A stretch of DNA of 64,000 nt from an uncultured Thermodesulfobacteriota bacterium (GTDB taxonomy: Bacteria > Desulfobacterota > B13-G15). A model generated the notes under the pieces. That model ran no database searches. It was not told where the DNA came from and saw only the letters and a list, made by a program, of their open reading frames with translations. Of this stretch, positions 17,446 through 61,200 are shown piece after piece (position 1 is the stretch's first letter; each line of letters opens with the position of its first letter). The stretch covers positions 74,988 to 138,987 of the forward strand of contig CAZSWV010000002.1 of assembly GCA_964611295.1 (NCBI GenBank), in the 5' to 3' direction. The translations under genes were made by a program, and so were the position numbers.

Positions 17446-17475
17446 GTTGACATTTTTAAAAATTCCGTTTAAAAT
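17446..17475 (+). promoter_or_regulatory. Candidate sigma-70 promoter of katG
   Basis: TTGACA, an 18-nt spacer, then TAAAAT, about 25 nt upstream of the AGGAGG ribosome-binding site. Confidence 0.4.
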
Positions 17476-17497
17476 TAAAAAAACTACAAAAGGAGGC

Positions 17498-19699
17498 ATG
17501 ATGAAAGGGCAAACCCGGAAAAGGTGGATAACGGATTGGTGGCCTCAAAGGTTAAACCTTAAGGTGTTGCGTCAAAACTGCATTTGTTCTAATCCTTTCG
17601 GTCCTGATTATGACTATGCAGAAGAATTTGAGAGCCTTGATCTGTCGAAAGTAAAGGAAGACCTTCGAGAGATTATGACTAAATCTCAAGATTGGTGGCC
17701 AGCAGATTTTGGTCATTACGGCCCATTATTTATACGTCTAGCGTGGCACAGTGCGGGTAGTTATAGGGTTTTTGATGGAAGAGGAGGTGCAAGAAGCGGT
17801 GATATAAGGTTCCCTCCGCGCATCAACTGGCCTGACAATATGAATCTCGACAAAGCTCTGAGGTTGTTATGGCCTATTAAACAAAAATATGGGAGAAAGT
17901 TGTCTTGGGCAGATTTGATCATCCTTGCAGGTAACGTAGCGTTAGAGTCAATGGGAGTGAAAACCATTGGATTTGCAGGAGGCAGAGAGGATATTTGGGA
18001 GCCTGACGAAAGTGCAGATTGGGGGCCTGAACAAGAAATGCTTTCGGGTAAGGAAAGGTTCAAAGAGGGAGAATTGGAAAGGCCGTTTGCTGCTACTGAA
18101 ATGGGTTTGATATACGTAAACCCAGAAGGCCCAGAGGGAAACCCAGATCCCATGGCCTCCGCCAAACAGATAAGGGAGGCTTTTTCGCGTATGGGTATGA
18201 ACGATGAAGAAACGGTAGCCCTTATAGCAGGTGGGCATGCCTTTGGTAAATGTCATGGTGCATGTGCGGATACATACGTTGGACCAGATCCAAGTTCTTC
18301 ACCTATTGAGGAGCAAGGTCTTGGATGGAAAAATACTTACAAAAGTGGAAAAGGTCCCGATACTTTTACCTCTGGATTTGAGCTAACATGGTCACCTACA
18401 CCTACAAAGTTCGGTTTAAATTACTTACATATATTGTTTAACTATGAATGGGAATTGACCAAAAGCCCTGCAGGAAAATACCAATGGGTTGCTAAGGACG
18501 CTCCAGCTATTATCCCTGATGCATATGACCCACAAAAAAAACATCCTCCTATGATGCTAACTGCTGATTTGGCTTTGCGTTTTGATCCAGTCTATGCTGA
18601 AATAGCAAAACGTTATCTCCATAATCCAAAACAGTTCGAGGAAGCTTTCGCTAAAGCGTGGTTTAAACTTACTCACCGTGATCTTGGCCCTAAAGAGTGT
18701 TATCTTGGTCCAGAAGTCCCCGAGGAGACCTTTTTATGGCAAGATCCGCTTTCTTTGCGTGATTACGAGCTTATAGACGAAGAAGACATAGAAGAGTTGA
18801 AAAAAGTCCTTTCTGAGTCAGGTTTGGGGATCTCGGAGATGGTGTACACTGCGTGGTCTGCTGCCTCTACCTATAGGAATTCGGATAGACGCGGAGGGGC
18901 AAACGGAGCCCGTATACGACTTCTTCCCCAAAGGCAATGGGAAGTAAACCATCCTGATGATCTTATACGCATACTTAAGGTCTATGGAACCATCCAGGAG
19001 AAGTTCAATTCTGAACAGAAAAAGCGGAATACTGGGAAGAAGGTGTCAATGGCCGACCTTATCGTATTAGCTGGCTGTGTAGCAGTAGAGCTGGCAGCCC
19101 AAAAAGCAGGTTTCAATATAAAAATACCCTTTGTGCCTGGTAGAGTAGATGCTGAACAAGAACACATCGATTTGAACTTTTGGTCGTTATTGGAGCCTTT
19201 CGCTTGCGGTTTTCGTAATTACATAAAAGATCCTTCAAAAATAAAAGCAGAAGAAGCCCTTATCGATAAAGCACAATTGTTAACACTTAAGGTAACCGAA
19301 CTTGTAGTGTTAATAGGTGGTCTTAGAGTTTTAGGGGCTACCTATAAATATTCGAATTATGGTGTATTCACCGAAAAAAGAGGAGTTCTTACAAATGACT
19401 TTTTTGTAAACCTTTTAGATATGTCTGTTACATGGGAAGCGCTTGACAAGTACCGTTACCTTTTTAAGGGTATTGATAGAAAAACAGGCAGTGCGAAGTG
19501 GTTAGCTACTCGAGTAGATTTAATTTTTGGACACCATGATGAATTAAGGGCAATATGCGAGGTTTATGCTTCATCAGATGGGAAAGAAAAATTTATAGAA
19601 GATTTTGTAAAAACATGGACCAAGGTGATGCATCTTGATAGGTTTGACTTATGGCGGAACAACAGGAAACTTTATAAACAGCTTGTAGCAGGCATCTAA
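17498..19699 (+). CDS. katG: Catalase-peroxidase
   Basis: The start is set at ATGATG after AGGAGG. Typical KatG N-terminus [11 protein letters not shown], two-domain length. Confidence 0.92.
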
Positions 19700-21444
19700 C
19701 CATATAGTGGTTTTCGATAGTAATTAGTTATCGGCAAGCGCCATTCCCTGCCTAAGGAACGTAAAGTTATCTTAATCCCTGGTGGTGCTTGCCTTCTCTT
19801 GAATTCGTTGGTGGCAACCATTTCCATTACTTTTTCAACTGTTTCTATTTCGTACCCAGCAGCTACTATTTCTTCAAAAGAGGCCCCTTCCTCAACATAT
19901 AACCTAATAATAGGATCAAGGACTTCATATGGCGGTAAAGTATCTGTATCCTTTTGACCAGGCCTTAATTCTGCAGATGGTTCTTTTTCTAATATGCTTC
20001 GCGGTATTAAATCAAACCCGGCCTTGGAATTCCTCCATTTTGAAAGCTCGTAAACTAAACTTTTTGGTATATCCTTTATGACTGCTAGACCTCCTGACAA
20101 ATCTCCATAAAGTGTTGCATATCCACAGGCCAATTCACTTTTATTGCCTGTAGATAACACAAGCCATCCAAATTTGTTGGACAAGGCCATGAGGATAGTG
20201 CTTCTAATCCTAGCCTGGATGTTCTCTTCAGTGACGTCTATCTTTCTATCGACAAAATGGGGTTGAAGGACTTTGATATAAGTTTCAAAGATCGGCTCGA
20301 TGGATATTTCCTTTAACTCTATTCCCAAATTATGTACTAACTTCAAAACATCTCGTTTGCTTCTTTCAGAAGTAAATTGTGAGGGCATAAATACACCTAT
20401 CACATTCTCTTTACCAAGGGCGTCTACAGCTATTGAAGCGACTAAACTTGAGTCAATTCCTCCTGACAACCCTATTACTACCTTTCTGAACCCGTTTTTC
20501 CTCACATAATCCCTTGTACCAACGACAAGGGCCTCATACACTTCCTCTATTAGGGGTAAGGGGGGGGTGAGGGTATTTTGGGTTGAAGACCTCTTATGCA
20601 AAGGAGGGGTATCAGTGACTTTTAAGATCTTGGGGGCTCCTGTGAACACCCCATCGCATACTGTGGGGGGCTTACCACCTTTCAAAAAGAAAGAGGGTAA
20701 TTCCACTCTTGCTCTAAAGTCCTCCAAATCTGCCACCACCAAATCTTCGTGAAAAGCCTTAGCTCTGCATAATATTTCCCCTTTATGATTTACAATCACA
20801 CTTGATCCTTCAAACACCAATTCATCCTGACCACCTGCCGAATTGACAAAGACTAAAGGTAAGGAGTGTTCTTTAGCTAAAAAAGAAAGAAACCTTTCTC
20901 TCTGTTCTCTTTTACCTATGTAATAAGGAGAGGCATTTAAATTTATCAAAAGCTCAGTCCCCCAAAGTGATAAGGTAGTTATTGGCAGTAAAGGTAGGAA
21001 AATTTCCTGGCCAATGGTAATTGCTACTTTTTTCCCTTTTATAAAGAAAAGCATATAACTATTCCCTCGATCAAAATAGCGTTCTTCATCAAAAGTCTCA
21101 GAGTTTGTAATATGAATTTTTTTGTATATACCTTTTATTTCTCCTTTATAGATTACAGCTGCAGCATCATATATACCGTCTGAACAATCTACATATCCTA
21201 CTATCACAACCATTTCTTTGTCTGATGTAAAACTCACTAATTCTTGCAAGGCTAAAGAGTTGTCTCGTAAAAAGGAAGCATTAAACAAAAGGGCTTCTAA
21301 AGGGCAACCCGTAAGTGCAAGTTCGGGGAAACAGAGAAGGTCCACCTCCTTTTTTTCAGCTTCTTGGACAAAAAGCTTGATTTTCTCTAGGTTTCCTTTG
21401 AGATCGCCTACCGTAGGGTTGATTTGACCTATGCCTATCCTCAT
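19696..21444 (-). CDS. nadE: NAD+ synthetase with an N-terminal C-N hydrolase (glutaminase-type) domain
   Basis: Nitrilase-fold N-terminus with the Glu in FPELALTG. The C-terminal synthetase domain has SGGIDSS. Confidence 0.88.
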
Positions 21445-21591
21445 AGGTTACCTCCTTTTTCCTTGCAACAAAAGATTATAAATCCCTCCCCTTTTTCTTG
21501 TCTATTTTGAAAAACAGTTTAAGGTCTTATCGTCATCGTTCTCCTTTTGGCATTATAATAATGAGTGGAAAGTCAAAAAGGAGGGTGTGCT

Positions 21592-28050: not shown

Positions 28051-29790
28051 TTAGTATTTATATCCTCTTGAAGTGACCATTTTCGATTTTTTTATAAAAG
28101 TTTGGGAATTGCCAACTATTATAGTAGTATCCATCTCTATAGGGTAATTTTCTAACTCTACTAAACTTGTTATCCAAAATTTACATCCCTCTCGGTATGC
28201 TTTTTTTACTATTGCAACAGGTGTATTGGGTTTTTTATATTGAAGCAAAATTTCCTTTATTTCTTTTATCCTATCACGATTTTTGCTTCGAGGGTTTAAC
28301 AAAACCAATACAAAATCTGCAGCAGCTGCTTTCCTAAGCCTATCTTCTATAAGCTCCCATGGGACTAAACGATCGGATAAGCTAATGACCGAAAAATCGC
28401 CAATCAAAGGGGCTCCTACTAGAGAAGCTGCTGCATTAATGCTAGAAATACCAGGTATTATTTCCACATCTATGGTATGATCTTCAAGTAACTCAAATAC
28501 AATTCCAGCCATCCCGTAAACACCAGGATCACCTGCACTTACAATGCTTACTATTTTACCGCTTGCAGCCTCTTCTAGCGCTCTTTTAGCTCTTTCTACT
28601 TCATGGGTCATGCCGTACACAAGAAGTTTTTTGTCTTTAATGATAGGTTCTATCAATTTAACATAAGTACTATATCCTATTACCACATCAGACTCCCTTA
28701 AAGCCTTTACAGCCTGTGGAGTAATAAGCTCTAAATCACCTGGTCCAATTCCCACCACATAAAGCTTACCTTTTGGCCTAAACGCAACTTCAGCTAAAGC
28801 AAAAGTGACGTGATCAAAAACCCTCTTAGGAGCTATTAATACTCCTCCACTTGCTAAAAGAGCTGCTTGCTCTGAGAGTGAATCTATTCCTATGGCCTTC
28901 TTCACCTTATCAGAAGAGCTAACAGATTTTACCTTTCTTAATTCCTCTTCTGAATAACCAAGGATTTCCACTTTCAAAGCTTCCTTCAAAGAAACAATAA
29001 CTGGATGTTGTACTTTGCGTCTAAGTGTCGCTATAGCCTTGATAGCTTCAGGTAAAACTCCTAAAGAATCCAGCCATTTCTGCAATGTGACTTTAACATA
29101 TTCTGGATTTACTAAATCGTGAAAACCTATCCCAACAAAAAGATTTTGGGGGACAAACTGTACTTTACTTTCTAACGAAACAAATTTACGATTAGAAATC
29201 AATATGTCGGCTTTTTCTGGGTCTTCCACTTCTTCTATACCTTTTGGTAAATTAATGTGAACTTTTTTATCGACAAACGCTAAAAGTTTTCCATTATTCA
29301 ATAACTTTTCTTGTATCGATGGTAACTTTGATTTATTAATTATACGGAACCCCAATTTTTTAGCCCAAAGATCTAAAGCTTCAACTTCCCATAGGTCAGA
29401 GGAAGTTGATATAACAACTTGTGCTCCCAATAAGGTAGATATCTCATTTGCCAAGTGATTTGCTCCTGCTAAATGTCCTCCGCAGAGTGGTATAACAAAA
29501 TTACCTTTTTCATCGATTACTAACACTGCAGGGTCTTTCTCTTTGTCATGAAGAAGGCGTGCTATGATACGAACTACAATCCCTGTAGCCATTACAAAGA
29601 TCAAGAAGTTATTTTGTTTCCATAAAGAGTCTACTAGTTTCGGTTCTAATCTCCTAACATTGGCATTAGGATAAAAAGGTCTTAATTTTTCTATCAATTT
29701 ATAACCGCGGTCACTTATGTAAATAAACACTATATTTCCCTTATCGTGCTTCATGTTTTTTATTCCCATAAAGTTTGGACCTTTTCCCAA
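28051..29790 (-). CDS. cbiGH: CbiG-CbiH fusion (cobalt-precorrin-5A hydrolase / precorrin-3B C17-methyltransferase)
   Basis: CbiG-like N-terminal portion of about 330 aa, then a tetrapyrrole methylase domain starting KLYVVGIGPGD. The start codon is uncertain (M1, M8 or M13). Confidence 0.8.
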   Translation of the reverse strand: MGKGPNFMGIKNMKHDKGNIVFIYISDRGYKLIEKLRPFYPNANVRRLEPKLVDSLWKQNNFLIFVMATGIVVRIIARLLHDKEKDPAVLVIDEKGNFVIPLCGGHLAGANHLANEISTLLGAQVVISTSSDLWEVEALDLWAKKLGFRIINKSKLPSIQEKLLNNGKLLAFVDKKVHINLPKGIEEVEDPEKADILISNRKFVSLESKVQFVPQNLFVGIGFHDLVNPEYVKVTLQKWLDSLGVLPEAIKAIATLRRKVQHPVIVSLKEALKVEILGYSEEELRKVKSVSSSDKVKKAIGIDSLSEQAALLASGGVLIAPKRVFDHVTFALAEVAFRPKGKLYVVGIGPGDLELITPQAVKALRESDVVIGYSTYVKLIEPIIKDKKLLVYGMTHEVERAKRALEEAASGKIVSIVSAGDPGVYGMAGIVFELLEDHTIDVEIIPGISSINAAASLVGAPLIGDFSVISLSDRLVPWELIEDRLRKAAAADFVLVLLNPRSKNRDRIKEIKEILLQYKKPNTPVAIVKKAYREGCKFWITSLVELENYPIEMDTTIIVGNSQTFIKKSKMVTSRGYKY

Positions 29791-30499
29791 AGGGTTCTTT
29801 TATTGCCTTTAAAGCTTCCCCGACGTATATAAGTGCTGTCCTTTTGATGGAATTTCTTTCAATAATCAGATCAAGCTCAGAAAGTTTTCCTAAGAAGACT
29901 TGTCCATCTGGCCAAGTTATTTTGTGCAGAACCGCTATCGGTGTGTCCCCCGGTAGTGTTTCTAACAAAGTTTCTTTGAGTGGTTTTACCAAAGAAGTGC
30001 TCAAGAAAAAGACCATGGTAGCCCTAAGTGAAGCTATTCGCTTTATTTCCTCTTTTGTAAGCCCTCCTGTATTTCCTTTAAACCTCAATAATATGACAGC
30101 TTCTGAAATCTCGGGTACCGTGAGTTCTACGGCCATAATCGCTGCTCCAGCCATGGCTGATGACACTCCAGGGATAACCTCATAAGGTATTCCCCTTGAT
30201 TTCAGCTCTTCCATCTGTTCTTGGATAGCGCTGTAAATACTCGGGTCACCGCTTACAAGCCTAACGACATCTTCACCCTTTTTAACGTGTTGTTCCATTA
30301 AATCAACTAACTCCTCCAAAGCCATCTTTGAAGAGTCAAAGAGCGTAGCTCTTATGCCCTTTATTATCTCAGGATTCAACAGACTACCAGGGTAGATGAC
30401 ACACGAAGCAGTTTCAAGAAGCCTCTTGGCTTTGACCGTTAGAAGCTCCGGATCTCCTGGACCCGCCCCTACGAAATATACTTTTCCTAACTTCTGCAC
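29741..30499 (-). CDS. cbiF: Cobalt-precorrin-4 C11-methyltransferase
   Basis: VYFVGAGPGDPELLTVKA and a CbiF-like length. Confidence 0.85.
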   Translation of the reverse strand: MQKLGKVYFVGAGPGDPELLTVKAKRLLETASCVIYPGSLLNPEIIKGIRATLFDSSKMALEELVDLMEQHVKKGEDVVRLVSGDPSIYSAIQEQMEELKSRGIPYEVIPGVSSAMAGAAIMAVELTVPEISEAVILLRFKGNTGGLTKEEIKRIASLRATMVFFLSTSLVKPLKETLLETLPGDTPIAVLHKITWPDGQVFLGKLSELDLIIERNSIKRTALIYVGEALKAIKEPFGKRSKLYGNKKHEAR

Positions 30500-31158
30500 T
30501 TTTTAACTACCACAAGAGAAAGGTAATCCTCGTCGTTATCTTCTAATGCCTCTAATCCCTCCCATATCTTTTGTTCGGGTAAGGTAGCCCTCTTAATGTA
30601 AAAAACCCTATAACGGTCAACGTCGATAAACTCCTTCAAATCCTTTATCTTACCTTTAACTTTTAAGAACACAAGGGTATCAAAATCGTTTATGTAAGTG
30701 CTTAAATTTTCACAGTATAAAACAGGGATAAGGGCAAGTTTTTCTTCACCTAGAACCAAAGGAAGTGGAATAGCACAAGCAGCAGCTGTAAAAGAACTAA
30801 CACCTGGTATTATTTCTACCGAAACTTTTTCCCTCAAATGATCGTAAATCCAAAAAAAAGTACAGTATAAGGAAGGATCGCCCAAGGTAACGTAAGTCCC
30901 TGTTTTAAAACGTTCTAACTCTTTAAGGATGACTTCCGAAGCCTTTGTAAGATGGACTTTTGGGTTTTGGGCCTTCATTGGAAATTCCAACAATACAACT
31001 TTTTGGCCTTTTAAAAATCCTCTTATGATCTCTAAAGCTCTACTATGCCCCTTTGTGGACGGACAAAAGACCACAGGGGCTTCTTCAAGGACCTTTCTGC
31101 CCTTAAGGGTTATAAGCTCAGGATCTCCCGGGCCTACCCCTACTACGTAAAGTTTCAC
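30487..31158 (-). CDS. cbiL: Cobalt-precorrin-2 C20-methyltransferase
   Basis: LYVVGVGPGDPELITLKG. The start forms an ATGA overlap with the upstream gene. Confidence 0.8.
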   Translation of the reverse strand: MKLYVVGVGPGDPELITLKGRKVLEEAPVVFCPSTKGHSRALEIIRGFLKGQKVVLLEFPMKAQNPKVHLTKASEVILKELERFKTGTYVTLGDPSLYCTFFWIYDHLREKVSVEIIPGVSSFTAAACAIPLPLVLGEEKLALIPVLYCENLSTYINDFDTLVFLKVKGKIKDLKEFIDVDRYRVFYIKRATLPEQKIWEGLEALEDNDEDYLSLVVVKKCRS

Positions 31159-32396
31159 CGTTTCCCCCTTATTACAAATACTGGGTTTAAAGCTTTAAAG
31201 CCCTTTTTGGTCCCAATGGGTTTGAGCCTAACTACGTTGACCTGCACCACATCGAGCTCGAAACCACATCCTTCAAAGCACTTTAAGGCTTCTGAAAAGG
31301 TCTCCACTGTCACAGCTGTAGTGACCACAACCTTAAGGCGTTCGATTTTGGTCAGTGTCCTTAATATTTCACCCAATTTTCCACCTGTCCCCCCTATGAA
31401 AACCCTATGTGGGGCTTCAAGCCCCATAAGGCATTCAGGAGCTTCACCTTTTATTACGATTAAATTGTCTAGACCAAACTTTTCCTTATTTTCCAACAAG
31501 GACTCAATGTCTCCCTTCTCAACAGCATAAACCTTAAGGGAGCGACTCAGTCTTGCCAACTCTACACTTATAGCTCCTGATCCAGCTCCTATGTCCCATA
31601 CTATACCCCTCCAAGGGGGTCTTAACTTATGGATGACAATAGCTCGTAACTCATCTTTCGTTATCATGCTCATTTTGTGATATATTTCGCTTTCCTCTAG
31701 ACCTATGATCGGTCCTCCAGGCTCTTCATGCGTTACGATTACAAAATGGGGATCTTCAATCTCCCACTTAAGGACCTCGTCTGCCGTTCCTTTCATCACC
31801 TTGAAATCGCTGTCCCCAAGCTTTTGGAATACAAAAAAAATGAGCCTTCCAGAAATAGTGTTTTTTAAAAAGTTTGCTAAGAACTTAGCATTTTTATTTG
31901 AGTCGGTAAGTACCGCCACTTTACCTTCTTCTTCCAAAACTCTTACTACTGCTTCTAGGGCAATTCCTTTGCCATGTAGACTTATAGTAGTTATACCGTG
32001 CCAGGGCTTTTTTATTATGCTAAGACCTATATTTAAACAAGAAACATCAGGCAAGATTTCGATTTTTTCCTCTCCTAACTCTTTAATAGCTTTTTCCGCT
32101 ATGCCAAAATACAAAGGATCCCCCGAAGCCAAAATTACAACATTTCCTTTGTGTAAAAAGGACGAAACTTTCGTGAAAAGCGTAGCTATATCTTGAACTT
32201 CGTACAGTTTGTTTTTTACTTTGTCATATTCCTTATACGATTTGAATATTTCATGTGAACGCGGAAGAGCAAAAATCACATCTGCCTCCTCAACGATTTT
32301 AAGAGCATCTCCGTCCAGAGGTTTGAAACCAATCCCTATGACAAAAACTTTATGTTTCTCTGTAACTAAGGAGATATATCTCCATGATGTATCCAT
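31155..32396 (-). CDS. cbiET: CbiE-CbiT fusion (cobalt-precorrin-6Y C5,C15-methyltransferase, decarboxylating; CobL-like)
   Basis: N-terminal tetrapyrrole methylase, then a C-terminal SAM methyltransferase with IVWDIGAGSGAISVE. Confidence 0.8.
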   Translation of the reverse strand: MDTSWRYISLVTEKHKVFVIGIGFKPLDGDALKIVEEADVIFALPRSHEIFKSYKEYDKVKNKLYEVQDIATLFTKVSSFLHKGNVVILASGDPLYFGIAEKAIKELGEEKIEILPDVSCLNIGLSIIKKPWHGITTISLHGKGIALEAVVRVLEEEGKVAVLTDSNKNAKFLANFLKNTISGRLIFFVFQKLGDSDFKVMKGTADEVLKWEIEDPHFVIVTHEEPGGPIIGLEESEIYHKMSMITKDELRAIVIHKLRPPWRGIVWDIGAGSGAISVELARLSRSLKVYAVEKGDIESLLENKEKFGLDNLIVIKGEAPECLMGLEAPHRVFIGGTGGKLGEILRTLTKIERLKVVVTTAVTVETFSEALKCFEGCGFELDVVQVNVVRLKPIGTKKGFKALNPVFVIRGKR

Positions 32397-33087
32397 GTTT
32401 TTCCCTCAAGGAACGTCTCAGTTTTATCAGTTGGTCTTTTACTTCGACCAACCTTCCTGAAAAAACCGTCTCTTTCTCGGTGCCAAGATAAGCCCCCCAA
32501 TAAATCCAAATATTTGGATCATTAATAAAGCGGAAACTTTCGTAGTTATCAAGAAATACAACGGTATTATCGCGGATTTCCTTTTTTTTCCTCATCACAC
32601 GCGGAGTGGTCAAAACGACTGATCCGGCTATATCGTTTAAGGATATTTTATGTTTAGCAGAAAGAAGCTGGATAGACGAAATTCCAGGAATTACTTCAAA
32701 ATGAATTGGTATAATTGTGGAAAGATAACGTAGTATCTCTATATAACCATCGTAAAGAGAAGGATCTCCTAAGACCAAAATACCAGCTTCTTCAATTTCT
32801 TGAATGGCACTTAATAACAATTTTGCTTTGTGTTTTCTCCATTCTTTAACCGAATCTACATAAGGCAACTCTGTTGGTCTCTGCCCGAAATCTAATCGTA
32901 TCAGTTCATAATCTTTTTGAGGACGTAAATGATTTAGGATTCTTTCTCGTAATAAAGTAAGGTGTTCCTTTTCACCCTTTTTATCAGGGATAATGAAATA
33001 CTGTAATTTTTTAATTAAGTCACAAGCTTCAAGGGTCAAATATTTAGGGTCACCTGGTCCTATGCCTATTATATAAACCTTCTTCAT
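32350..33087 (-). CDS. cobF: CobF-like precorrin-6A synthase (deacetylating) type tetrapyrrole methylase
   Basis: IIGIGPGDPKYLT at the N-terminus. The C-terminal motifs IYWGAYLGT...SGRLVEVKD...IMEIYLL are characteristic of CobF as far as I recall. Confidence 0.6.
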   Translation of the reverse strand: MKKVYIIGIGPGDPKYLTLEACDLIKKLQYFIIPDKKGEKEHLTLLRERILNHLRPQKDYELIRLDFGQRPTELPYVDSVKEWRKHKAKLLLSAIQEIEEAGILVLGDPSLYDGYIEILRYLSTIIPIHFEVIPGISSIQLLSAKHKISLNDIAGSVVLTTPRVMRKKKEIRDNTVVFLDNYESFRFINDPNIWIYWGAYLGTEKETVFSGRLVEVKDQLIKLRRSLREKHGYIMEIYLLSYRET

Positions 33088-33938
33088 TTTTCATTTATAG
33101 GAAATACGCCCTTCAAATGTTCTAACCAAATCCTTATTATCCTATTGCTCTCTGCAAGTCCTCTCAGCAGAGGTACTACTTTAAAACCTTCCTTTTCGAG
33201 TATGGACTTCCAACTGCTTGGATCTTCACCAGCCATGTCGTTTAAGACGTGATCTCCCGCAACAGCCATGAATGGTATGAGGTATACTTTCTTTACTTTA
33301 TTAATACGCAACTTGGGTATTATTTCCTCAAATTTAGGCCATCCTTCTACGGTAGCTAAAAATACGTTTGGGTCCTTTTGGTTAAGAACATAGGCTATTG
33401 CTACATACAAGTTGCCTGCGGGATGAGAGGTGCCATGTCCCATAAAAATGACACCATCTTTTGATGTCCTTTCCTTTGGGAGTTCCTCCAGGAGTATCTG
33501 AGCCACGTGTTCCAAATCTTCGTAAGAAGAGAGCAAAGGTGGAGAAACCACTATGTATTTCAACTTGTTTGACATCTTGGAAAACAATTCTGCGCTCCTC
33601 TTTAACTCATGGTATTCCTCACCGGGTATTACATGAAGGGATAATATTCCTATTTCTTCAACCCCTTCCTCTAGCATACGACAAAGGGCCATTTCAGGAG
33701 AGTCAACGTTAACCCCCTGCTCCCTTAGCTTTTCCCTGACCATCCTCGACGTATAGGCCCAACGGACGCTGGCCTCGGGGAATTCACCCTTAACCACTCG
33801 ATCCACCGCGTCGTAAACTTTTCTCGCTTCAGGAACACTGGTCCCAAAGGCAACGATCAATATGCCTTTTTTTGAGGTACTATGGCATATACCTATAACA
33901 CAAAGAACAAAAAAACTCACTATAACCAACACCCTCAT
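33084..33938 (-). CDS. cbiK: Sirohydrochlorin cobaltochelatase CbiK with an N-terminal signal peptide (periplasmic CbiK(P)-type)
   Basis: Hydrophobic leader MRVLVIVSFFVLCVIGICHS, then a CbiK fold with the metal-binding His residues. Confidence 0.75.
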   Translation of the reverse strand: MRVLVIVSFFVLCVIGICHSTSKKGILIVAFGTSVPEARKVYDAVDRVVKGEFPEASVRWAYTSRMVREKLREQGVNVDSPEMALCRMLEEGVEEIGILSLHVIPGEEYHELKRSAELFSKMSNKLKYIVVSPPLLSSYEDLEHVAQILLEELPKERTSKDGVIFMGHGTSHPAGNLYVAIAYVLNQKDPNVFLATVEGWPKFEEIIPKLRINKVKKVYLIPFMAVAGDHVLNDMAGEDPSSWKSILEKEGFKVVPLLRGLAESNRIIRIWLEHLKGVFPINEK

Positions 33939-33941
33939 ACT

Positions 33942-34547
33942 CTACCCCTCCTTTTGATTTTTAACAATTTTCAATAAAGCATTTACCACAGCAGCTGTTG
34001 CTGCTGATCCTCCTTTACGACTCAAGTTTGTTATAAATGGAAAATCTTGCTTACTTAAAATAATTTTGGCCTCCAACGCTTTAATGAAACCCACAGGCAT
34101 GCCTATTATTATTTTATCTTTTATCTTATTTACATTAAACAACTCAATTGCTGATAACAATGCAGTAGGCGAATTACCGATAGCGACAATTCCGATTTCC
34201 TGTCCTTTTTCAAAAAAAGCTACTCGTATAGCTTCTTCACACATAGTTCCAGAAGCAGTACTTACTTTATCAAGGTAGCATATAACCTCTATATCTGAGG
34301 ATAAATTTTTAGAAATACCTGCTTCAAGCATTTTTACGTCTACCAGAATTGCTTTTTTCTTTAATAGAGCATCTATGGCTACTGCAATTGCTTTGGGATG
34401 AAAGACCATAGTGTATCGGAATTCTGGATCGGCTGTGGCATGGATGACCCTTTTTATAATCTCTTTCTGTTCAAAAGGTATTCCTTCGAAATCAATTTCT
34501 CTTTCTATGAGTTCCAAGCTCTCTTTTTCTATTTGTTCACCACCCAT
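33942..34547 (-). CDS. cbiC: Cobalt-precorrin-8 methylmutase
   Basis: CbiC/CobH family features and length (201 aa). Confidence 0.8.
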   Translation of the reverse strand: MGGEQIEKESLELIEREIDFEGIPFEQKEIIKRVIHATADPEFRYTMVFHPKAIAVAIDALLKKKAILVDVKMLEAGISKNLSSDIEVICYLDKVSTASGTMCEEAIRVAFFEKGQEIGIVAIGNSPTALLSAIELFNVNKIKDKIIIGMPVGFIKALEAKIILSKQDFPFITNLSRKGGSAATAAVVNALLKIVKNQKEG

Positions 34548-34558
34548 GTGAAAAACTC

Positions 34559-35344
34559 CTAAAGGACATAGGGTACTATTACGGAAAACCCGTTGGTTTT
34601 TATGGAGTACACCTTTATCCCATAGACCTCTTCGATAAGATCTTCAGTTATGACTTCGGAAGGGGCTCCTTGTACCACGATTTCTCCTTTGTTTAATACC
34701 AAGACCCAATCGCCAAAAAACAGAGCCAAGTTCGGATCGTGTAAGCTAATTAAAACTCCTTTGCCCTCGTTATGTGAAAACTCCCTTATTTTAGACAAAA
34801 CCGTCCATTGGTTTTTAAAGTCCAAATGTGAAGTCGGCTCATCGAGTAGCACATAAGAAGCCCCTTGGGCAATGGCCCTTGCAAGGAGGGTCAATTGTCT
34901 TTCGCCTCCGCTTACCTTAGTATAGGTTTTTTCCCCCAAGTGCCCTATTCCAAGCATTTCCAAAGCCCTCTTGGCGATAAGAAGGTCTTTGTCTCCGGGG
35001 GTGGAGAAAACACCAAGGTGAGATACCCTCCCCATAAGTACGATTTCAAGGACTTTATAAGGAAAAGAAGGCTCGTGATCTTGTGGTACGTAGGAAATCC
35101 TTTTCGCCCTCTCCTTATAGGTTAAGGAGTTCACACTTTTACCATCTATCTTTATCGTCCCTTTTTGAGGTTTCCATATGCCTACAAGACATCTAAACAA
35201 GGTGCTTTTCCCAGAACCATTTGGGCCAAGTAAGACCGTGATTTCTCCTTTACGAACTCGGAAAGATACATCCCTCAGGATTTCCTGAGGTTGCCCCTTG
35301 TGTCTGAAAGTTAAGCCTTCAACTTCTAACATCAGCTTTCCCAA
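34559..35344 (-). CDS. ABC transporter ATP-binding protein, FepC/BtuD/HmuV type
   Basis: Walker A GPNGSGKST, signature LSGGERQ, Walker B LLDEPTSHLD. Confidence 0.88.
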   Translation of the reverse strand: MGKLMLEVEGLTFRHKGQPQEILRDVSFRVRKGEITVLLGPNGSGKSTLFRCLVGIWKPQKGTIKIDGKSVNSLTYKERAKRISYVPQDHEPSFPYKVLEIVLMGRVSHLGVFSTPGDKDLLIAKRALEMLGIGHLGEKTYTKVSGGERQLTLLARAIAQGASYVLLDEPTSHLDFKNQWTVLSKIREFSHNEGKGVLISLHDPNLALFFGDWVLVLNKGEIVVQGAPSEVITEDLIEEVYGIKVYSIKTNGFSVIVPYVL

Positions 35345-36333
35345 GTTTCTTTTCCCTTTTTCCTCATCAGATAAACGAAAAACGGAGCACCTGTAAGGGC
35401 CGTTATTATACCTACAGGAACGTCAAAACCCACAAAAGTCCTCGAAAGAGTATCTGCTCCTATCATAAAGGCGGCACCTCCAAATAACGAAAGAGGCAAA
35501 AGAACACTATGCTCTGGTCCAACCATCATCCTTACAATATGTGGCACCATTAACCCAACCCATCCAATAATTCCACATGTTGAAGTAGCAACAGCTACAG
35601 AAAAAGTCGAGAATAAGATAAATATCATCCGATCTCTCTTCACATTTACACCTAACGCATAAGCTTCTTCTTCTGAAAGACTCATTACGTTTAACCTCCA
35701 TCTCATAAGCACTATTGGCAATATTCCTACTATGGTTCCTATCAAAGCTATTTTAAAGTTACGCCAATCAGAAAGAGAAAAACTGCCCATTGTCCAAAAA
35801 ATTATACCTTGTAATTTATGGGGATCCACTAATATTTTTACAATAGAAACCAGAGCTGTGAAAAAAGCTGAAACTATTACACCTGAAAGCACCAATGGAA
35901 GTCTAGAAATTTCTTGTTGACTTTTTGCTACCATATAAGTAAGTGATACTGCTAAAAGTCCAAATATAAAAGCCATAGTTTGAACTGACCAAGATGGTAA
36001 AAACCCTATAGTTATAGCACATCCAAAAGCTGCTCCTGCTGAAATCCCTAAGATGTAAGGGTCGACCAAAGGATTCCGTAGCAGTCCTTGTAATACTGCC
36101 CCGGATCCTGCCAAAGAAGCCCCTACTGTTGCTGCCATTAATATTCGCGGTAGGCGTATATCTAAGATAATTGCCTTTTCTGGAATATTACTAATACCGT
36201 TATAGTTGGTGATTCCCTGGAATAATATCTTAATTACTGTAATTGGAGGGATATCATAAGTTCCTATAAAAAGGGAAAACAACCCTATTGCGAAGGGAGA
36301 AAGTATTATAAAGGACGTTTTAATCCTTTTCAT
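35332..36333 (-). CDS. FecCD-family ABC permease (BtuC/HmuU-like)
   Basis: Polytopic membrane protein with FecCD-type features. Confidence 0.85.
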   Translation of the reverse strand: MKRIKTSFIILSPFAIGLFSLFIGTYDIPPITVIKILFQGITNYNGISNIPEKAIILDIRLPRILMAATVGASLAGSGAVLQGLLRNPLVDPYILGISAGAAFGCAITIGFLPSWSVQTMAFIFGLLAVSLTYMVAKSQQEISRLPLVLSGVIVSAFFTALVSIVKILVDPHKLQGIIFWTMGSFSLSDWRNFKIALIGTIVGILPIVLMRWRLNVMSLSEEEAYALGVNVKRDRMIFILFSTFSVAVATSTCGIIGWVGLMVPHIVRMMVGPEHSVLLPLSLFGGAAFMIGADTLSRTFVGFDVPVGIITALTGAPFFVYLMRKKGKETWES

Positions 36334-37303
36334 ATGTTTTCACCTCTTGCCAAGATATGCTAAAAACCTTCTTGAAGAAAGCGTTCATTAGTTCTTGGAT
36401 TGTTGTACTTTCTATCCTTTCGAGGTGTAAATATTGATCCATCCACAAAGCCAATCCAATAATGGATGGTGACCATGTTTGTAGGTGGGGCATTCTGTAA
36501 ACCCTTTGGTTTTGTACTGCGCTGATCTTTTGCCATGCAGGATGTTTTAATATCCACTCTGGACCGTAACTTGTACTTCTCCAAAGGAATATAGTATCAG
36601 GATTCCATCCGATTATGCGTTCAAGGGAAACGTTTGCGTATTTTACTCCTAAGCCGCACGCTACATTTTCAGCGTTAAGGCACCTGAGCACGTCGTTAAT
36701 TATGCCTTGATCAGCGATTACCCGCGTTGGAGGATCGCTGAGGATGAGCACCCTTTTGTGGTTACCTTTTTTGTTTTCTAAATAGGACAGAAACCTCCTC
36801 ATCTCCATAATGATCTCCTTGGCTCTTTCTTCTTTTGCAAACAGCCTTCCGTGGACTTCTATAAGTTCAAAGAGGTCCTTTAATCCGTCAGGCCAGAAAG
36901 CCATGACTTTTATCCCTTTGTTTTCAAGGAATTGAAGAAGTTCGGGGTTGTTTGCCCACATGATGACTACGTCTGGGTTAAGTTGGGTTAGTTTTTCTAG
37001 ATCTATTTGCCATGGTGTTCCTATGATTGGCCTTCTCAAAGAAGGGTTTTTACGCAATAGAGCTTTAAAAACGGGAGAAAACTCGTAGGCATTTTGAGAT
37101 ATGCCTACCACGCGGTCCATTGCTCCAAGGGAACAAACGACCTCGTAGGTCATAGTAACCACGGCCCTTTTAACGGGGACTTCTAAGGTTATCCTTTTCC
37201 CTCTTGAGTCCCAAAAGGTCTCTTCTTTTCCCCAAAGCCGTCCATGGAAACTTGAGGCAATCAAGTACAATGCTGACAATAAGATGAAAGATTTGAGCCT
37301 CAT
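36320..37303 (-). CDS. Periplasmic substrate-binding protein (BtuF/HmuT-like)
   Basis: Signal peptide MRLKSFILLSALYLIASS. The start is re-called at ATG 37303, because the track's GTG start at 37336 lies inside the riboswitch terminator hairpin. Confidence 0.75.
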   Translation of the reverse strand: MRLKSFILLSALYLIASSFHGRLWGKEETFWDSRGKRITLEVPVKRAVVTMTYEVVCSLGAMDRVVGISQNAYEFSPVFKALLRKNPSLRRPIIGTPWQIDLEKLTQLNPDVVIMWANNPELLQFLENKGIKVMAFWPDGLKDLFELIEVHGRLFAKEERAKEIIMEMRRFLSYLENKKGNHKRVLILSDPPTRVIADQGIINDVLRCLNAENVACGLGVKYANVSLERIIGWNPDTIFLWRSTSYGPEWILKHPAWQKISAVQNQRVYRMPHLQTWSPSIIGLALWMDQYLHLERIESTTIQELMNAFFKKVFSISWQEVKTYEKD

Positions 37304-37304
37304 T

Positions 37305-37560
37305 AATAAAAAAACCCCACGTTTGTGGGGCTGCACCCGTTTTTCTCTTCGCCCCTTCCCCTATCCCTCGAGGGGATTAGGGTTATATGGTGGGCAGGTC
37401 TTCCGGCTCCCGGATCTTCCTACTCCCCGCACCTTCCCAGGGCCAGAGGCCCCAGTGGCCTACTGCGGGTTTCGTCCCCGGTCACGGCGGCGGGACCGCG
37501 GGGGATTTTCACCCCACTTCCCTTTTAAGCCCACAATGGGCACCCACCTATATTTTATTT
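37305..37560 (-). promoter_or_regulatory. Cobalamin (B12) riboswitch: aptamer at about 37405-37555, plus an expression-platform hairpin and U-tract at 37305-37330
   Basis: The minus-strand RNA reads GGUGCC...AAAAGGGAAGUGGGGUGAAAAUCCCCCGCGGUCCCGCC...AGGCCACUGG, which contains the B12 box GCCACUG. It is followed by CCCCACAAACGUGGGG and a U7 run just before the btuF ATG. The region is a GC-rich island in AT-rich DNA. Confidence 0.85.
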
Positions 37561-37618
37561 TCCCTCTCAATGAGTTTATGGTCAACAGTGTAGTCTTCTT
37601 GATAGAATCTTTTAGCTC

Positions 37619-38194
37619 ATGGGACTTTTGGTTGAACTTGACCTCAGAGGGAAAAGAGTCCTCTTAATAGGAGGAGGTTGTATAGCGACGAGGAGATTTT
37701 TAAAACTATACCAAGCCCGTCCTTCGCTATTAAGGGTAGTAGCAAAAAGGATACAGGAGGAAATCAAAAAAGTGGCTTTTGTCACCCCATGGATTGAACT
37801 TTTTGAAAGGGATTTTCAAGAAGAAGACCTAGAGGGCTTCCATATGGTATTGGCTGCAACAGATGACGCGGATCTCAATCGTAGGATAGCCTTTTTGGCA
37901 AGGGGAAAAGGTATGTGGGTCAACGTGGCAAATGATAGAGGACTTTCTGATTTTTTCTTCCTTGCTACTGTGGAAAGACCACCTTTGTCTATAGGGGTTT
38001 CTTCTTCAGGAACGCTTCCCGCCTTTTCAAGTGCCCTTAAGGAAGCTTTAGAATCAACTCTCCCATGGGATGAGCTTGTCCGTGAACTCCATCTACTGGT
38101 TATGCAAAGAGGCAAAATTCCTTCTTCGGAAATGCGCAAAAGATGTTTAAATAGGATACTTTCAGTGTGGCCTAAATTTACAAAGGACAAATAA
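37619..38194 (+). CDS. sirC: Precorrin-2 dehydrogenase / sirohydrochlorin ferrochelatase (SirC / CysG N-domain-like)
   Basis: LRGKRVLLIGGG Rossmann N-terminus, length 191 aa. Confidence 0.75.
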   Translation: MGLLVELDLRGKRVLLIGGGCIATRRFLKLYQARPSLLRVVAKRIQEEIKKVAFVTPWIELFERDFQEEDLEGFHMVLAATDDADLNRRIAFLARGKGMWVNVANDRGLSDFFFLATVERPPLSIGVSSSGTLPAFSSALKEALESTLPWDELVRELHLLVMQRGKIPSSEMRKRCLNRILSVWPKFTKDK

Positions 38195-38196
38195 AT

Positions 38197-39582
38197 TTAC
38201 TCTTTCTTAAAGAGGGTGGAAAAATTTGTCTCTAACGATAGACAATCAAAAAAAGGGGGAAGTATGAACTTTTCTTTTTTTTCCATAACTTTTTCCCCTT
38301 TCTCTCCGAACCTATCAAGGTAAGCTTCTAAGCAGACTTGATCACCAAAGACAAAGGTCGTAAAAGTATCCAGGTGTTCTTCTATTATCTTAGAAACGTT
38401 CTTACCAGAGGGAAGTACTTCTAAGAAATCTAAAAAATACACTTCAGCTCCAAGATCGCTTAAAAACATGTAAGTTGCTTTGTCCTTCATAGGAAGTCCT
38501 ATTTTCCTACCTTTTAGTCCATCTTTTTTTACATCGATCTCGAAAAGTTTATAGGGTATACCTTTTTCGAACAATATGGGTTTGCCATCTGCAGGACAGA
38601 GGATCTCAAATCTCATTTCCCTCAGGTCCAAGCCTAGACGATTAAAGGCCCTCAGCATAGGGGTCAGTAAGGCCCTTCTTGGAATAGCCAGGAAATCCAA
38701 GCCTTTTATTCTCTGTATCTCCTCCTTACAGGATGCCTTTGGCTCGTATTTCAAAACAGGAAAGACAAAGACCTTCGCCCCTTTTTCCTTTAGAAAGCTT
38801 GAAAGGAACAGCCCTTCTTCCTTAGGGGTTACTAACAAAATTTCCTTCCCTAACAGAGGACGTTTTTCAAACCAATTAAGTTTAAATCTGAGGTTACAGA
38901 CATCCCCGAGGACGATTAAAGAGGGAGACACTAGGTCGATACTAGACATTTCCTTTAGCTTGCCTTCTATTACCTTCTGCCTTGTTGTAGCCCCCCACGT
39001 TATAGCTGTAACAGGTGTATCAGGATCCATTCCAAGCGCAAGGAGACGCTGCAATGTTTCTTTCGCATTTTTAGCCCCCATAAATAATACCACCGTTCCT
39101 TTAAATTGAGCTATGGAAGCCCAGTTAATTGCTTGGTCTTTTTGAGGATCTTCATGACACGTAGCAGCGCAAAAACAAGAAGATATACGCCGATGAGTCA
39201 AAGGGATTCCTGCATAAGCAGGAACTGCATAAAGAGAACTTACACCTGGTACTACTTCAACATCAATATCTTTTTCAACTAGATACTCAACTTCTTCTCC
39301 TCCCCGACCAAATATAAAGGGATCTCCTCCTTTAAGTCTTACTACAAGTTTACCTTCCTTTGCTTTTTGTTCCATTACATAATTTATTTGTTCTTGAGTG
39401 ACATTGCGACGTTTACCGACAGGGATAAGTTCGGCTTCTTCTTTACAGTGAACCAAAATTTCATGAGGAATAAGGTCATCATAAAGCACAACGTCTGCCT
39501 TTTTTAACACTTCTAATCCTCTACAGGTAATCAGACCTGGATCTCCTGGACCTGCCCCTACTATGTAAACTTTTCCAGCCAC
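38197..39582 (-). CDS. cobA-hemD: Uroporphyrinogen-III C-methyltransferase fused to uroporphyrinogen-III synthase (CobA-HemD)
   Basis: VYIVGAGPGDPGLIT SUMT domain, then a HemD-like C-terminal portion of about 220 aa. Confidence 0.82.
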   Translation of the reverse strand: MAGKVYIVGAGPGDPGLITCRGLEVLKKADVVLYDDLIPHEILVHCKEEAELIPVGKRRNVTQEQINYVMEQKAKEGKLVVRLKGGDPFIFGRGGEEVEYLVEKDIDVEVVPGVSSLYAVPAYAGIPLTHRRISSCFCAATCHEDPQKDQAINWASIAQFKGTVVLFMGAKNAKETLQRLLALGMDPDTPVTAITWGATTRQKVIEGKLKEMSSIDLVSPSLIVLGDVCNLRFKLNWFEKRPLLGKEILLVTPKEEGLFLSSFLKEKGAKVFVFPVLKYEPKASCKEEIQRIKGLDFLAIPRRALLTPMLRAFNRLGLDLREMRFEILCPADGKPILFEKGIPYKLFEIDVKKDGLKGRKIGLPMKDKATYMFLSDLGAEVYFLDFLEVLPSGKNVSKIIEEHLDTFTTFVFGDQVCLEAYLDRFGEKGEKVMEKKEKFILPPFFDCLSLETNFSTLFKKE

Positions 39583-60700: not shown

Positions 60701-61200
60701 TGAGGCCCATAAAAGTAAAAGAAGCTGAAATTTGTATAAAAGCTTTAGGGGAAGAAAAAAACCTAAGAGTGTGTACAGATATATTAACAGATGGATGGAA
60801 CAGAATGGTTAGTTTTGATACTTACAATATTCAAGAAGGCATAATTAACGTAGAAAATAACAAAGAATTCAGAAGTGAACCTAAAGCTTTTTTATATACT
60901 CAAGGAGAGTTAGTTCAGGAAATGCGCGAAAAGGGTATCGGAAGGCCGTCTACTTACGCAACAATTGTTGAAAAGTTATTAGAAAGACATTACGTAATAG
61001 AAAAAAAGGGACGTCTAATACCAACTAAGTTAGGGAAAAAAGTCTATCAATATCTCCTTCAATACGAAAAGGTACGAAACTTTTTGTCCGAGAATTTTAC
61101 AAAACACCTTGAAAAACTTATGGACGAAGTAGAAGAAGGGAAAGGAGATTACGAGTACATTCTAAAACAATTATATACTCAAATCTGTAATATTACATAA
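57796..61200 (+). CDS. rgy: Reverse gyrase
   Basis: N-terminal Zn-finger CPNCKG...CERC, a helicase-like domain with LLAPTGVGKT, and a C-terminal topoisomerase IA (Toprim plus catalytic Tyr) region. 1134 aa. Confidence 0.9.
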   Translation: MIKAIFKGLCPNCKGDISSDRLEKGLPCERCLPNETDPEYLIKGALTDFLSLREEERQWVEHFTKYMKSPPWSLQIAWARRVFLGRSFALLAPTGVGKTSFGVSMSSYLAKKGKKTYIIVPTRLLVEQITEKLLLFGVEKKTILAFGDEGSDRREKKLQLKEGFFNVLITTSMFLYKNYDIIPRFFDFIFIDDVDSFLKTAKNIDKVLLLLGFSEESIEKALNLIKLRSKRYKEEHDRSQIEYFLKELKELRQKNRVLVVSSATSTPKSDRVRLFKELLGFEVGAPMFYLRNVVDVYTKSNLPLYEWIKELGQGGLVFVPSDVGREKIAEIIKELQTQGISAISYEDVSESTLRKFENGQIDVIIGIASYRNPLARGLDLPHAIRYALFWGVPKIVISLKFETNISHLLWALSSLRSAIAKNLPQYITKVDRWISQLRHLQHFSEDFLSTKPWLNDKAKRLREEIHSFLNADIFINLMSSSNEVTLRRLQDGYYMVISDATGYLQASGRTSRMFAGGVTKGLSLLIVDDERAFTHLQKKLRWFSEEIKFKELGEIDLSQILREIDEDREKIKKIKLGEISSGHKEILKPVLIIVESPNKARTIANFFGKAIRRKIGEQEVLETSVEDKYLMITSSFGHILDLCTEGGFYGVKVNEEVVPIYEPIDNRESIIQSLRLISEEVFEVLIATDPDTEGEKIGWDILMLLMPFVNKIRRMEFHEVTKKAIINSLKNPRDFHESLVKAQILRRVADRWIGFEFSRLLWKEFGTNILSAGRVQTPVLGWIIAKEAEYRKRIYKVIVRIGVNRKPLRVEFVFEEKDKAKQFFENLKEVEVTINTVIEEERHPPPPLRTDTLLKEANDKLRFSVPLTMQLAQILFELGFITYHRTDSIRVSDYGISLAKEYVKEEFAEEYFAGRSWSQEGAHECIRPTKPLDGNELRALVLSGQIEGLSRDHVLLYDLIFKRFIASQMRPIKVKEAEICIKALGEEKNLRVCTDILTDGWNRMVSFDTYNIQEGIINVENNKEFRSEPKAFLYTQGELVQEMREKGIGRPSTYATIVEKLLERHYVIEKKGRLIPTKLGKKVYQYLLQYEKVRNFLSENFTKHLEKLMDEVEEGKGDYEYILKQLYTQICNIT

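Follow-up and report, generated by a model that had tools for sequence, protein, structure and literature searches.

A two-domain NAD+ synthetase from an uncultured Thermodesulfobacteriota bacterium with glycine at the position of the glutaminase nucleophile

We analyzed a 64,000-nucleotide stretch of DNA (the window; positions 74,988 to 138,987 of contig CAZSWV010000002.1, assembly GCA_964611295.1) from an uncultured Thermodesulfobacteriota bacterium. Its minus strand carries nadE (19696..21444), which was identified by open reading frame, hidden Markov model (HMM) and fold match as the gene for a 582-residue, two-domain (type F) nicotinamide adenine dinucleotide (NAD+) synthetase. We found that this protein has glycine at the position of the nucleophilic cysteine of its glutaminase domain. 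A Shine-Dalgarno-like AGGAGG, seen by direct reading of the sequence, lies 6 nt 5' of the nadE ATG (21451..21456, minus strand). The protein begins with a nitrilase-fold CN_hydrolase domain, a predicted pseudo-glutaminase (residues 2-240; 20725..21441, minus strand; Pfam PF00795, 2.7e-29). A Pro/Ser/Thr-rich inter-domain linker follows (residues 248-295; 20560..20703, minus strand), which was delimited by alignment, has a predicted local distance difference test (pLDDT) score <50 at residues 248-265, and lacks Leu256, Arg260 and Arg262, residues conserved in homologues that keep the cysteine (Cys-type enzymes). Next comes an NAD synthetase domain of the PP-loop ATP pyrophosphatase type (residues 303-553; 19786..20538, minus strand; Pfam PF02540, 2.4e-78). 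It contains the ATP-binding signature SGGIDS of the PP-loop (residues 327-332; 20449..20466, minus strand), whose columns were invariant in the homologue alignment.

HMM score, the fusion of CN_hydrolase and NAD_synthase domains and the synthetase motifs all placed the protein in the two-domain type F family. It scored 671.7 bits against NCBIfam NF010588 'NAD+ synthase' (PRK13981; cutoff 479), with residues 1-578 covering positions 5-544 of the 546 in the model, and missed the models for single-domain, NH3-dependent NadE (212.3 versus 255 bits for PRK13980 (NF010587) and 42.6 versus 250 for PRK00768). The synthetase motifs SGGIDS, TGNKSE, YGD and EFKRRQ were all intact. An AlphaFold2 (AF2) model showed the two-domain fold (pLDDT 88.6, predicted template modelling score 0.90), with values mostly >90 in the N-terminal domain, a drop to ~70 in the YRE loop and a disordered linker. 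Its best Foldseek match was 3N05 (template modelling (TM) score 0.86/0.88). Together with 5KHA (Acinetobacter baumannii) and 4F4H (Burkholderia thailandensis), 3N05 (Streptomyces avermitilis) shares the architecture, fold and PP-loop motifs of the window NadE, and phmmer aligned it with these three at 37-39% identity (E 1e-127 to 1e-131). However, the three structures have ICED, TGYP and LPNYGVFDE, whereas the window NadE has IGQE, TGCP and ITNSETFDE. Thus, the protein belongs to the two-domain family by sequence, architecture and fold but fails the catalytic features of the glutamine-hydrolysing class.

The Glu-Lys-Cys triad of that class (EC 6.3.5.1) is incomplete. The catalytic Glu41 (21322..21324, minus strand), within FPELALTG (residues 39-46), and Lys109 (21118..21120, minus strand), within IYKKIH (residues 106-111), were kept, as the sequence-only reading had noted, and both were invariant (121/121). 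That reading had also claimed that the nucleophile is replaced by glycine, and gapped alignments with 5KHA, 4F4H, 3N05 and Mycobacterium tuberculosis NadE (tbNadE) bore this out: Gly145, with codon GGC at 21010..21012 of the minus strand as had been reported, occupies the position of Cys176 of tbNadE and Cys175 of human NADSYN1. In phmmer alignments, the ten-residue segment around it, which lies within the motif at residues 139-149, paired with 'fgvliCEDiw' of 5KHA, 'fgvviCEDvw' of 4F4H and 'ialaiCEDlw' of 3N05, and also with 'hveiAEDMFvPm' of M. tuberculosis C176A chains. The same alignment with tbNadE matched Cys47 with Tyr58, Lys109 with Lys121, Ser115 with Tyr127, Phe118 with Phe130, Glu120 with Glu132, Gln146 with Glu177, Phe149 with Phe180 and Pro173 with Pro204. 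In the AF2 model, Gly145 sits at the strand-helix elbow, where strand 138-144 gives way to helix 145-149; the nucleophilic Cys that active PF00795 amidases have at this elbow is missing, and Gly145 aligns with the Cys of nitrilase-fold structures. The nucleophile column was Cys in 112/112 Cys-type close homologues and 80/80 GTDB species-representative loci; of 120 matches to an N-domain profile, 119 had Cys there. Judged from these counts, the absence of Cys in the window NadE is far beyond a chance deviation. Re-gapping did not recover a cysteine: phmmer against chains of the Protein Data Bank and MAFFT alignments with 120 and then 158 homologues all kept Gly145 in the Cys column, paired with residue 176 in the case of tbNadE.

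To describe relatives, we refer to the window's lineage and two sister species (P0002 and P0003) as group A, and to P0004, P0005, P0011-P0013 and P0121 as group B. An identical NadE protein was present on contigs of three other sequencing runs (SRR27730012, SRR21619491 and SRR27730019), whose strains had 3-4 nt differences within nadE, the same GGC, and flanks 99.2-99.9% identical to the window. The 90% cluster of the window NadE had six members, all with Gly, one of which (NCBI MEO0242431.1) was found on 10 contigs, the largest being 244 kb. P0002 (78% identity) and P0003 (77%) have the motif IGQEIF, in which Gly is encoded by GGG and GGA; group B (57-58% identity) has SIGEDLYY and the codon GGT, and TGT or TGC stands here in the closest Cys-type relatives. 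This synonymous divergence at the Gly codon (GGC, GGG, GGA, GGT) shows that glycine has long been retained. The sequence-only reading had offered a sequencing error as the alternative, with TGC as the true codon in an ordinary glutamine-dependent NadE. It is true that TGC becomes GGC by a single base change and that the window comes from an assembly of an uncultured organism, but the same GGC occurs in three other runs in strains 3-4 nt apart, Gly occurs throughout the cluster and, by other codons, in the sister species and the related group, and adjacent residues were changed as well (E146Q, D147E, W149F). Independent assemblies and synonymous codons together exclude an error of sequencing or assembly, whose remaining chance is negligible.

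Additional residues of the glutamine site were replaced. Gln146 (21007..21009, minus strand) stands in place of the second active-site Glu (Glu177 in tbNadE, Glu176 in the human enzyme), which was Glu in 112/112 Cys-type homologues and is reported to raise thiol nucleophilicity and form part of constriction 1 (PMC6946656). Cys47 (21304..21306, minus strand), shared by the three group-A members, stands where 'TGYP' has its near-invariant Tyr, in the same constriction (Tyr58 in tbNadE, Tyr51 in the human enzyme; Tyr in 111/112 Cys-type homologues). The statement of the sequence-only reading that no other Cys is in a compatible context needs qualification here, as Cys47 is near the site. According to the same study, Tyr58TB/Tyr51HS, Phe130TB, Glu132TB and Pro204TB build the constriction through which the ammonia tunnel is entered, and Tyr127TB touches the bound ligand (PMC6946656). 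At the position of this glutamine-contacting Tyr (111/112 Cys-type homologues), the window NadE has Ser115, which is part of a degenerate YRE loop (residues 112-120; 21085..21111, minus strand) that aligns as ITNSETFDE with the consensus LPNYGVFDE. The loop is hypervariable, with a different sequence in each of the three group-A species; Phe118 and Glu120 (Phe130TB and Glu132TB) were retained in the window NadE, and the tunnel and constriction residues Phe118, Glu120, Ser172 and Pro173 were invariant. Other group-A changes at the glutaminase site are Y47C, P49L and D51A (TGYPPED to TGCPLEA) and R189L, and those around the nucleophile are C145G, E146Q, D147E, W149F and Y150L. Compared with the residue roles described for the M. 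tuberculosis and human enzymes (PMC6946656), glutamine-contacting and catalytic residues were lost, while several tunnel and constriction residues were kept along with Glu41 and Lys109. Group B is less degenerate, with Tyr47 and Glu146 kept and Tyr115 mostly kept. With the 112 Cys-type homologues as reference, 26 of 96 columns of at least 90% conservation were altered in the glutaminase domain (G-domain) of group A versus 11 of 145 in the synthetase domain (S-domain); the corresponding figures for group B were 16/96 and 4/145.

A set of mostly betaproteobacterial NadEs keeps the Cys but reads IC-A-D and not IC-E-D, the second Glu being naturally Ala throughout the clade. These proteins came from Accumulibacter, Aromatoleum, Propionivibrio, Zoogloea, Azoarcus, Methyloversatilis and one Actinomycetota metagenome-assembled genome (MAG) (loci L038, L040, L045, L048-L053, L055-L058, L060-L064, L066-L068 and L070-L080). 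Ala at this position in some Cys-bearing NadEs is a caveat on the use of the second Glu as a class criterion.

Compared with Cys-bearing relatives, the glutaminase domain of the Cys-less groups evolves at 2-3 times the rate. Within group A, the ratio of G-domain to S-domain protein distance was ~2.0, compared with a median of 1.39 over 6140 Cys-type pairs. In group B, the G-domain distance was 0.19-0.22 versus 0.064 +/- 0.020 for Cys-type pairs at matched S-domain distance, which is ~3x the matched expectation. Within the Cys-less groups, and hence for divergence after the loss only, the ratio of nonsynonymous to synonymous rates (dN/dS; Nei-Gojobori) was 0.11-0.17 for the G-domain and 0.04-0.08 for the S-domain, these values being approximate because dS was ~0.8-1.5, i.e., near saturation. 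Such persistent purifying selection indicates that the G-domain is kept for some role and is not decaying.

We used phmmer with the G-domain as query against 1.84 billion 50%-identity cluster representatives and examined the best 150 matches. Ten further Cys-less sequences were found among them, in which the nucleophile was Ser, Gly or deleted. Seven were full-length (P0277, which reads ISEDIL; P0324, P0331, P0335, P0401 and P0406; and P0416, which reads MGDELW) and three were fragmentary (P0272, P0372 and P0388). The full-length proteins made up 7 of the 67 full-length representatives among these matches, a Cys-less share of ~10% that is possibly biased upward because the matches sampled lie around a Cys-less query. 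Two more candidates, P0349 and P0368, were discarded when L-INS-i alignment revealed that a shift in the alignment had made them look Cys-less. By its synthetase domain, each of the seven was nearest to Cys-type proteins, which points to separate origins; by sequence, Cys-less two-domain NadEs thus recur in at least seven further lineages. The YRE loop was degenerate in all seven, and except for P0335, in which the synthetase motifs were degenerate, all kept these motifs. Several of them recur in different assemblies. The P0277 cluster (Cys to Ser) had eight members, including MDD2485536.1, from several NCBI MAGs. The P0416 cluster derived from Nitrospira sp. MAGs (Cys-less Nitrospira proteins MCP9465303.1 and MCP9452867.1), and the P0324 cluster from a Deltaproteobacteria MAG. 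Gly, and once Ser, may recur because these are the only small residues one substitution away from TGY.

Whether groups A and B lost the cysteine once or twice can be read either way. A neighbour-joining tree of the N-terminal domain placed the two groups together with the Cys-type proteins P0021 and P0074. Bootstrapped neighbour-joining of the S-domain recovered A and B as monophyletic in 22/200 replicates and group B with the Cys-type P0007/P0009 in 126/200, which favours the latter grouping, whereas DnaB identities and gene order fit a single loss. DnaB was 87% identical between A and B and 78-84% identical to that of MAGs labelled 'Deltaproteobacteria', and both groups share the order proC, DUF1285, comEC, acyl-CoA dehydrogenase, DUF8180 and then nadE. 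These observations are compatible with A and B as sister groups, with one loss plus long-branch effects in the gene tree.

A deletion allele was detected in group B. Five members of its 90% cluster (P0246, P0247, P0248, P0253 and P0255) are only 265-271 aa long and come from contigs of 26-168 kb (JGI, Logan and ENA). At locus L088 (5682-6940; JGI 3300029977, 168-kb contig), nadE has a 506-bp deletion that removes codons ~78-246 and is flanked by short direct repeats (AAGG(G)AAA..ATAT), as well as a 1-bp insertion at codon 511. All five truncated members have an identical frameshifted tail, and the adjacent genes are intact. By its sequence, the L088 allele is likely a pseudogene or a truncated synthetase, and it shows that members of this clade can lose the dead domain and perhaps the gene. 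A second group-B locus (L087; contig GBSCECS77c of JGI 3300000106, an older assembly) has a split nadE, which was rejected as a case of domain fission; the acyl-CoA dehydrogenase gene and proC are split there too, making frameshift errors likely.

The window has a G+C content of 39% and contains a gene for reverse gyrase (57796-61200, plus strand; 1134 aa) with zinc finger, DEAD helicase, Toprim and topoisomerase IA domains, which identifies a thermophilic or hyperthermophilic host. The neighbours of nadE are a convergent katG and a divergent efp, followed by DUF364, DUF8180 and acyl-CoA dehydrogenase genes; farther away are comEC, proC, a cobalamin cluster with a B12 riboswitch, electron transfer flavoprotein genes, enolase, dnaB and rplI. 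katG (catalase-peroxidase; 17447-19699, plus strand) and nadE overlap by 4 bp at their 3' ends and stop codons. The listed katG reading frame starts at TTG, and gene callers gave proteins of 732-751 aa; at the sister-species locus L091, katG is split into pieces of 204 and 481 aa, and comEC is split as well. In group B and the Cys-type P0007, nadE lies upstream of glnA at a distance of 10-55 bp, close to a gene with a glutamate-synthase domain (L084 3365-6466; L089 10001-13123; L093 2148-5292), and katG has that place in the window's lineage. The cobalamin riboswitch (37376-37561, minus strand; 120 bits) is upstream of genes for an ABC transporter of the B12/iron-siderophore type, with binding protein, FecCD permease and ATPase, which are followed by an anaerobic-type cobalamin biosynthesis cluster with CbiC, CbiK, several TP_methylases and CbiG (region 28051-39582). 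Taxonomy labels of MAGs with related proteins were in conflict: 'candidate division WOR-3' for NadE, 'Candidatus Bathyarchaeia archaeon' and 'Deltaproteobacteria'. For example, P0242 (a NadE fragment) and P0420 (DnaB) are identical to window proteins and are labelled 'Candidatus Bathyarchaeia archaeon' in NCBI. Mis-binning or inconsistent taxonomy is the likely cause. The labels and the reverse gyrase safely support no more than a thermophilic bacterium with relatives among MAGs labelled Deltaproteobacteria/Thermodesulfobacteriota.

We interpret the window protein as an ammonia-dependent NAD+ synthetase with a catalytically dead but retained glutaminase domain, a reading to which we assign a probability of about 0.7. 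The prediction of the sequence-only reading that the glutaminase half is inactive is supported, at the level of sequence, by C145G together with E146Q, Y115S, Y47C and a 2-3-fold relaxation of constraint. With the synthetase domain intact and the glutaminase site apparently dead, the enzyme would use ammonia. Its S-domain would adenylate nicotinic acid adenine dinucleotide and then amidate it with free NH3, i.e., EC 6.3.1.5 chemistry within an EC 6.3.5.1 architecture. The G-domain, no longer hydrolysing glutamine, would be retained as scaffold and interface, as type-F S-domains depend on their G-domain for folding, oligomerisation, interface and tunnel; the dead domain could possibly still be a route for ammonia to the synthetase site. 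In a thermophilic host, more free NH3 at high temperature might make loss of the glutaminase tolerable. Ammonium has a lower pKa when it is hot, so that a larger fraction of it is free NH3. Published work on related enzymes is consistent with the use of ammonia. Human C175Y loses glutamine-dependent activity, and its ammonia-dependent activity is near wild type (PMC10866660); free ammonia is a substrate of both tbNadE and the human enzyme, hsNadE (PMC6946656). Besides, NAD synthetases (NADS) of early-branching thermophiles show little or no glutamine preference: two-domain NADS of Thermotoga maritima prefers glutamine and ammonia equally, and the two-subunit NADS of Thermus thermophilus favours ammonia 50-fold (PMC3376133). 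The earlier suggestion, ammonia dependence plus a domain that is vestigial or repurposed, therefore stands with regard to ammonia, consistent with the published Cys mutants, but 'vestigial' is too strong for a domain with dN/dS of 0.11-0.17.

Several observations weigh against this interpretation. The confidence of the AF2 model is partly due to an underlying multiple sequence alignment dominated by Cys-type homologues, and near-saturated dS blurs the estimates of selection. No second nadE or other NAD-pathway gene was found within the 64-kb window, and a second NAD synthetase or an NMN route could lie elsewhere in the genome. The deletion lineage of group B indicates that NadE may be dispensable there. 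In an extreme form, the gene would be a dispensable copy heading for loss, with NAD made by another route and loss of the Cys as an early step of decay. The 506-bp deletion and 1-bp insertion of this lineage, the shared tail of the five database members and the accelerated evolution of the G-domain would fit such decay. However, every group-A strain and species, and most of group B, has the full-length reading frame, and S-domain dN/dS stayed at 0.04-0.08 over dS ~1 with the checked synthetase motifs intact; we therefore consider a decaying copy unlikely. Persistent selection on the dead domain (dN/dS 0.11-0.17) could also mean that it was repurposed as a non-catalytic sensor or regulatory module, which binds glutamine, another metabolite or a partner protein and tunes the synthetase. 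GQEIF, TGCPLEA and R189L are fixed across group-A species of 72-76% identity, Glu41 and Lys109 were kept, and nadE lies just upstream of glnA in group B and its Cys-type relative, all of which would fit such a role. Yet a scaffold role alone also accounts for purifying selection, the YRE loop, which couples glutaminase and synthetase in tbNadE and hsNadE, is the most degenerate and variable part here, and the window nadE is not adjacent to nitrogen-metabolism genes, so that we regard a sensor function as doubtful.

The invariance of Glu41, Lys109 and Glu120 could further mean residual or different chemistry, and Cys47, fixed in group A, is in the wall of the same constriction. These residues raise the question of a relocated nucleophile, in which the thiol of Cys47, aided by Glu41 and Lys109, attacks glutamine and the site remains active. 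The fixation of Cys47 in all three group-A species, where 111/112 Cys-type homologues have Tyr, the lining of the catalytic-Cys constriction by the equivalent Tyr (PMC6946656) and the occurrence of TGCP in the Cys-less lineage P0335 would agree with this. On the other hand, group B and most other Cys-less lineages have Tyr, Ser or Ala at position 47, group A has lost the second Glu and Tyr115 and has a hypervariable YRE loop, and the Cys-type P0110 also reads TGCP, showing that Tyr can change to Cys without loss of Cys145. We know of no precedent for relocation of the nucleophile in the nitrilase superfamily, which also counts against Cys47, and a thiol-active site of this kind appears very improbable. 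More broadly, the site might have been remodelled: C145G and Y47C on opposite walls of the constriction, together with E146Q, could turn the old glutamine pocket into a dedicated port by which free ammonia enters the tunnel, or could supply a thiol at a new place to attack a new amide substrate. This is a tentative and rather doubtful proposal. If true, it would define a functionally new class of two-domain NadE, and at least 8 lineages, including the Nitrospira MAGs, would, by their parallel origins, mark a repeated return from glutamine use to ammonia-dependent NAD synthesis that ends in deletion of the domain.

The preferred reading, an ammonia-dependent enzyme with a dead but retained glutaminase domain, has partial parallels among known systems. 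Single-domain NH3-dependent NadEs (Escherichia coli, Bacillus subtilis, Helicobacter pylori 1XNG and Pyrococcus horikoshii 2E18) have the same predicted chemistry and a homologous core, to which the window synthetase core matched with E values of 1e-32 to 1e-34 and a TM score to target of 0.86; they lack the nitrilase domain, linker and C-terminal extension, all of which are present in the 582-aa window NadE. In carbamoyl-phosphate synthetase I of ureotelic vertebrates, the glutaminase Cys was replaced, the enzyme is ammonia-dependent and the dead domain was kept, but this eukaryotic mitochondrial enzyme has an unrelated glutaminase fold (class I triad) and catalyses a different reaction. The M. 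tuberculosis C176A structures (3SDB, 3SEQ, 3SEZ, 3SZG and 6OFC) and human NADSYN1 p.C175Y are substituted at the same position as the window NadE. These alleles stem from the laboratory or from disease and leave the remainder of the site intact, whereas the change in the window is natural, fixed across species and accompanied by further degeneration of the site. T. maritima and T. thermophilus NADS, from thermophilic hosts, use ammonia as well as glutamine or better (PMC3376133) but keep a functional glutaminase, in contrast to the window NadE, which lacks the nucleophile. A full-text literature search, whose coverage was incomplete so that absence is not proof, found no description of a naturally Cys-less NadE.

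In the comparative analysis of NADS, every fused (type F) NadE was classed as glutamine-utilising (PMC3376133), and both the window NadE and the recurrent Cys-less proteins are labelled 'NAD+ synthase (glutamine-hydrolysing)' in databases. A conserved and recurrent Cys-less class would imply that the assignments of amide donor and nitrogen metabolism are wrong for these lineages. The proteins described here may be natural intermediates of amidotransferase reversion, from loss of the nucleophile through decay of the glutamine-binding and coupling loop to deletion of the domain core, the last in one strain lineage. Such a stepwise series would bear on the view that transfer and loss, with no fission, are the only ways in which single- and two-domain forms interconvert (PMC3376133). 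They also offer a natural experiment on the non-catalytic role of the G-domain as scaffold, tunnel or allosteric element, and the thermophile origin of the window NadE may suit it for structural work.

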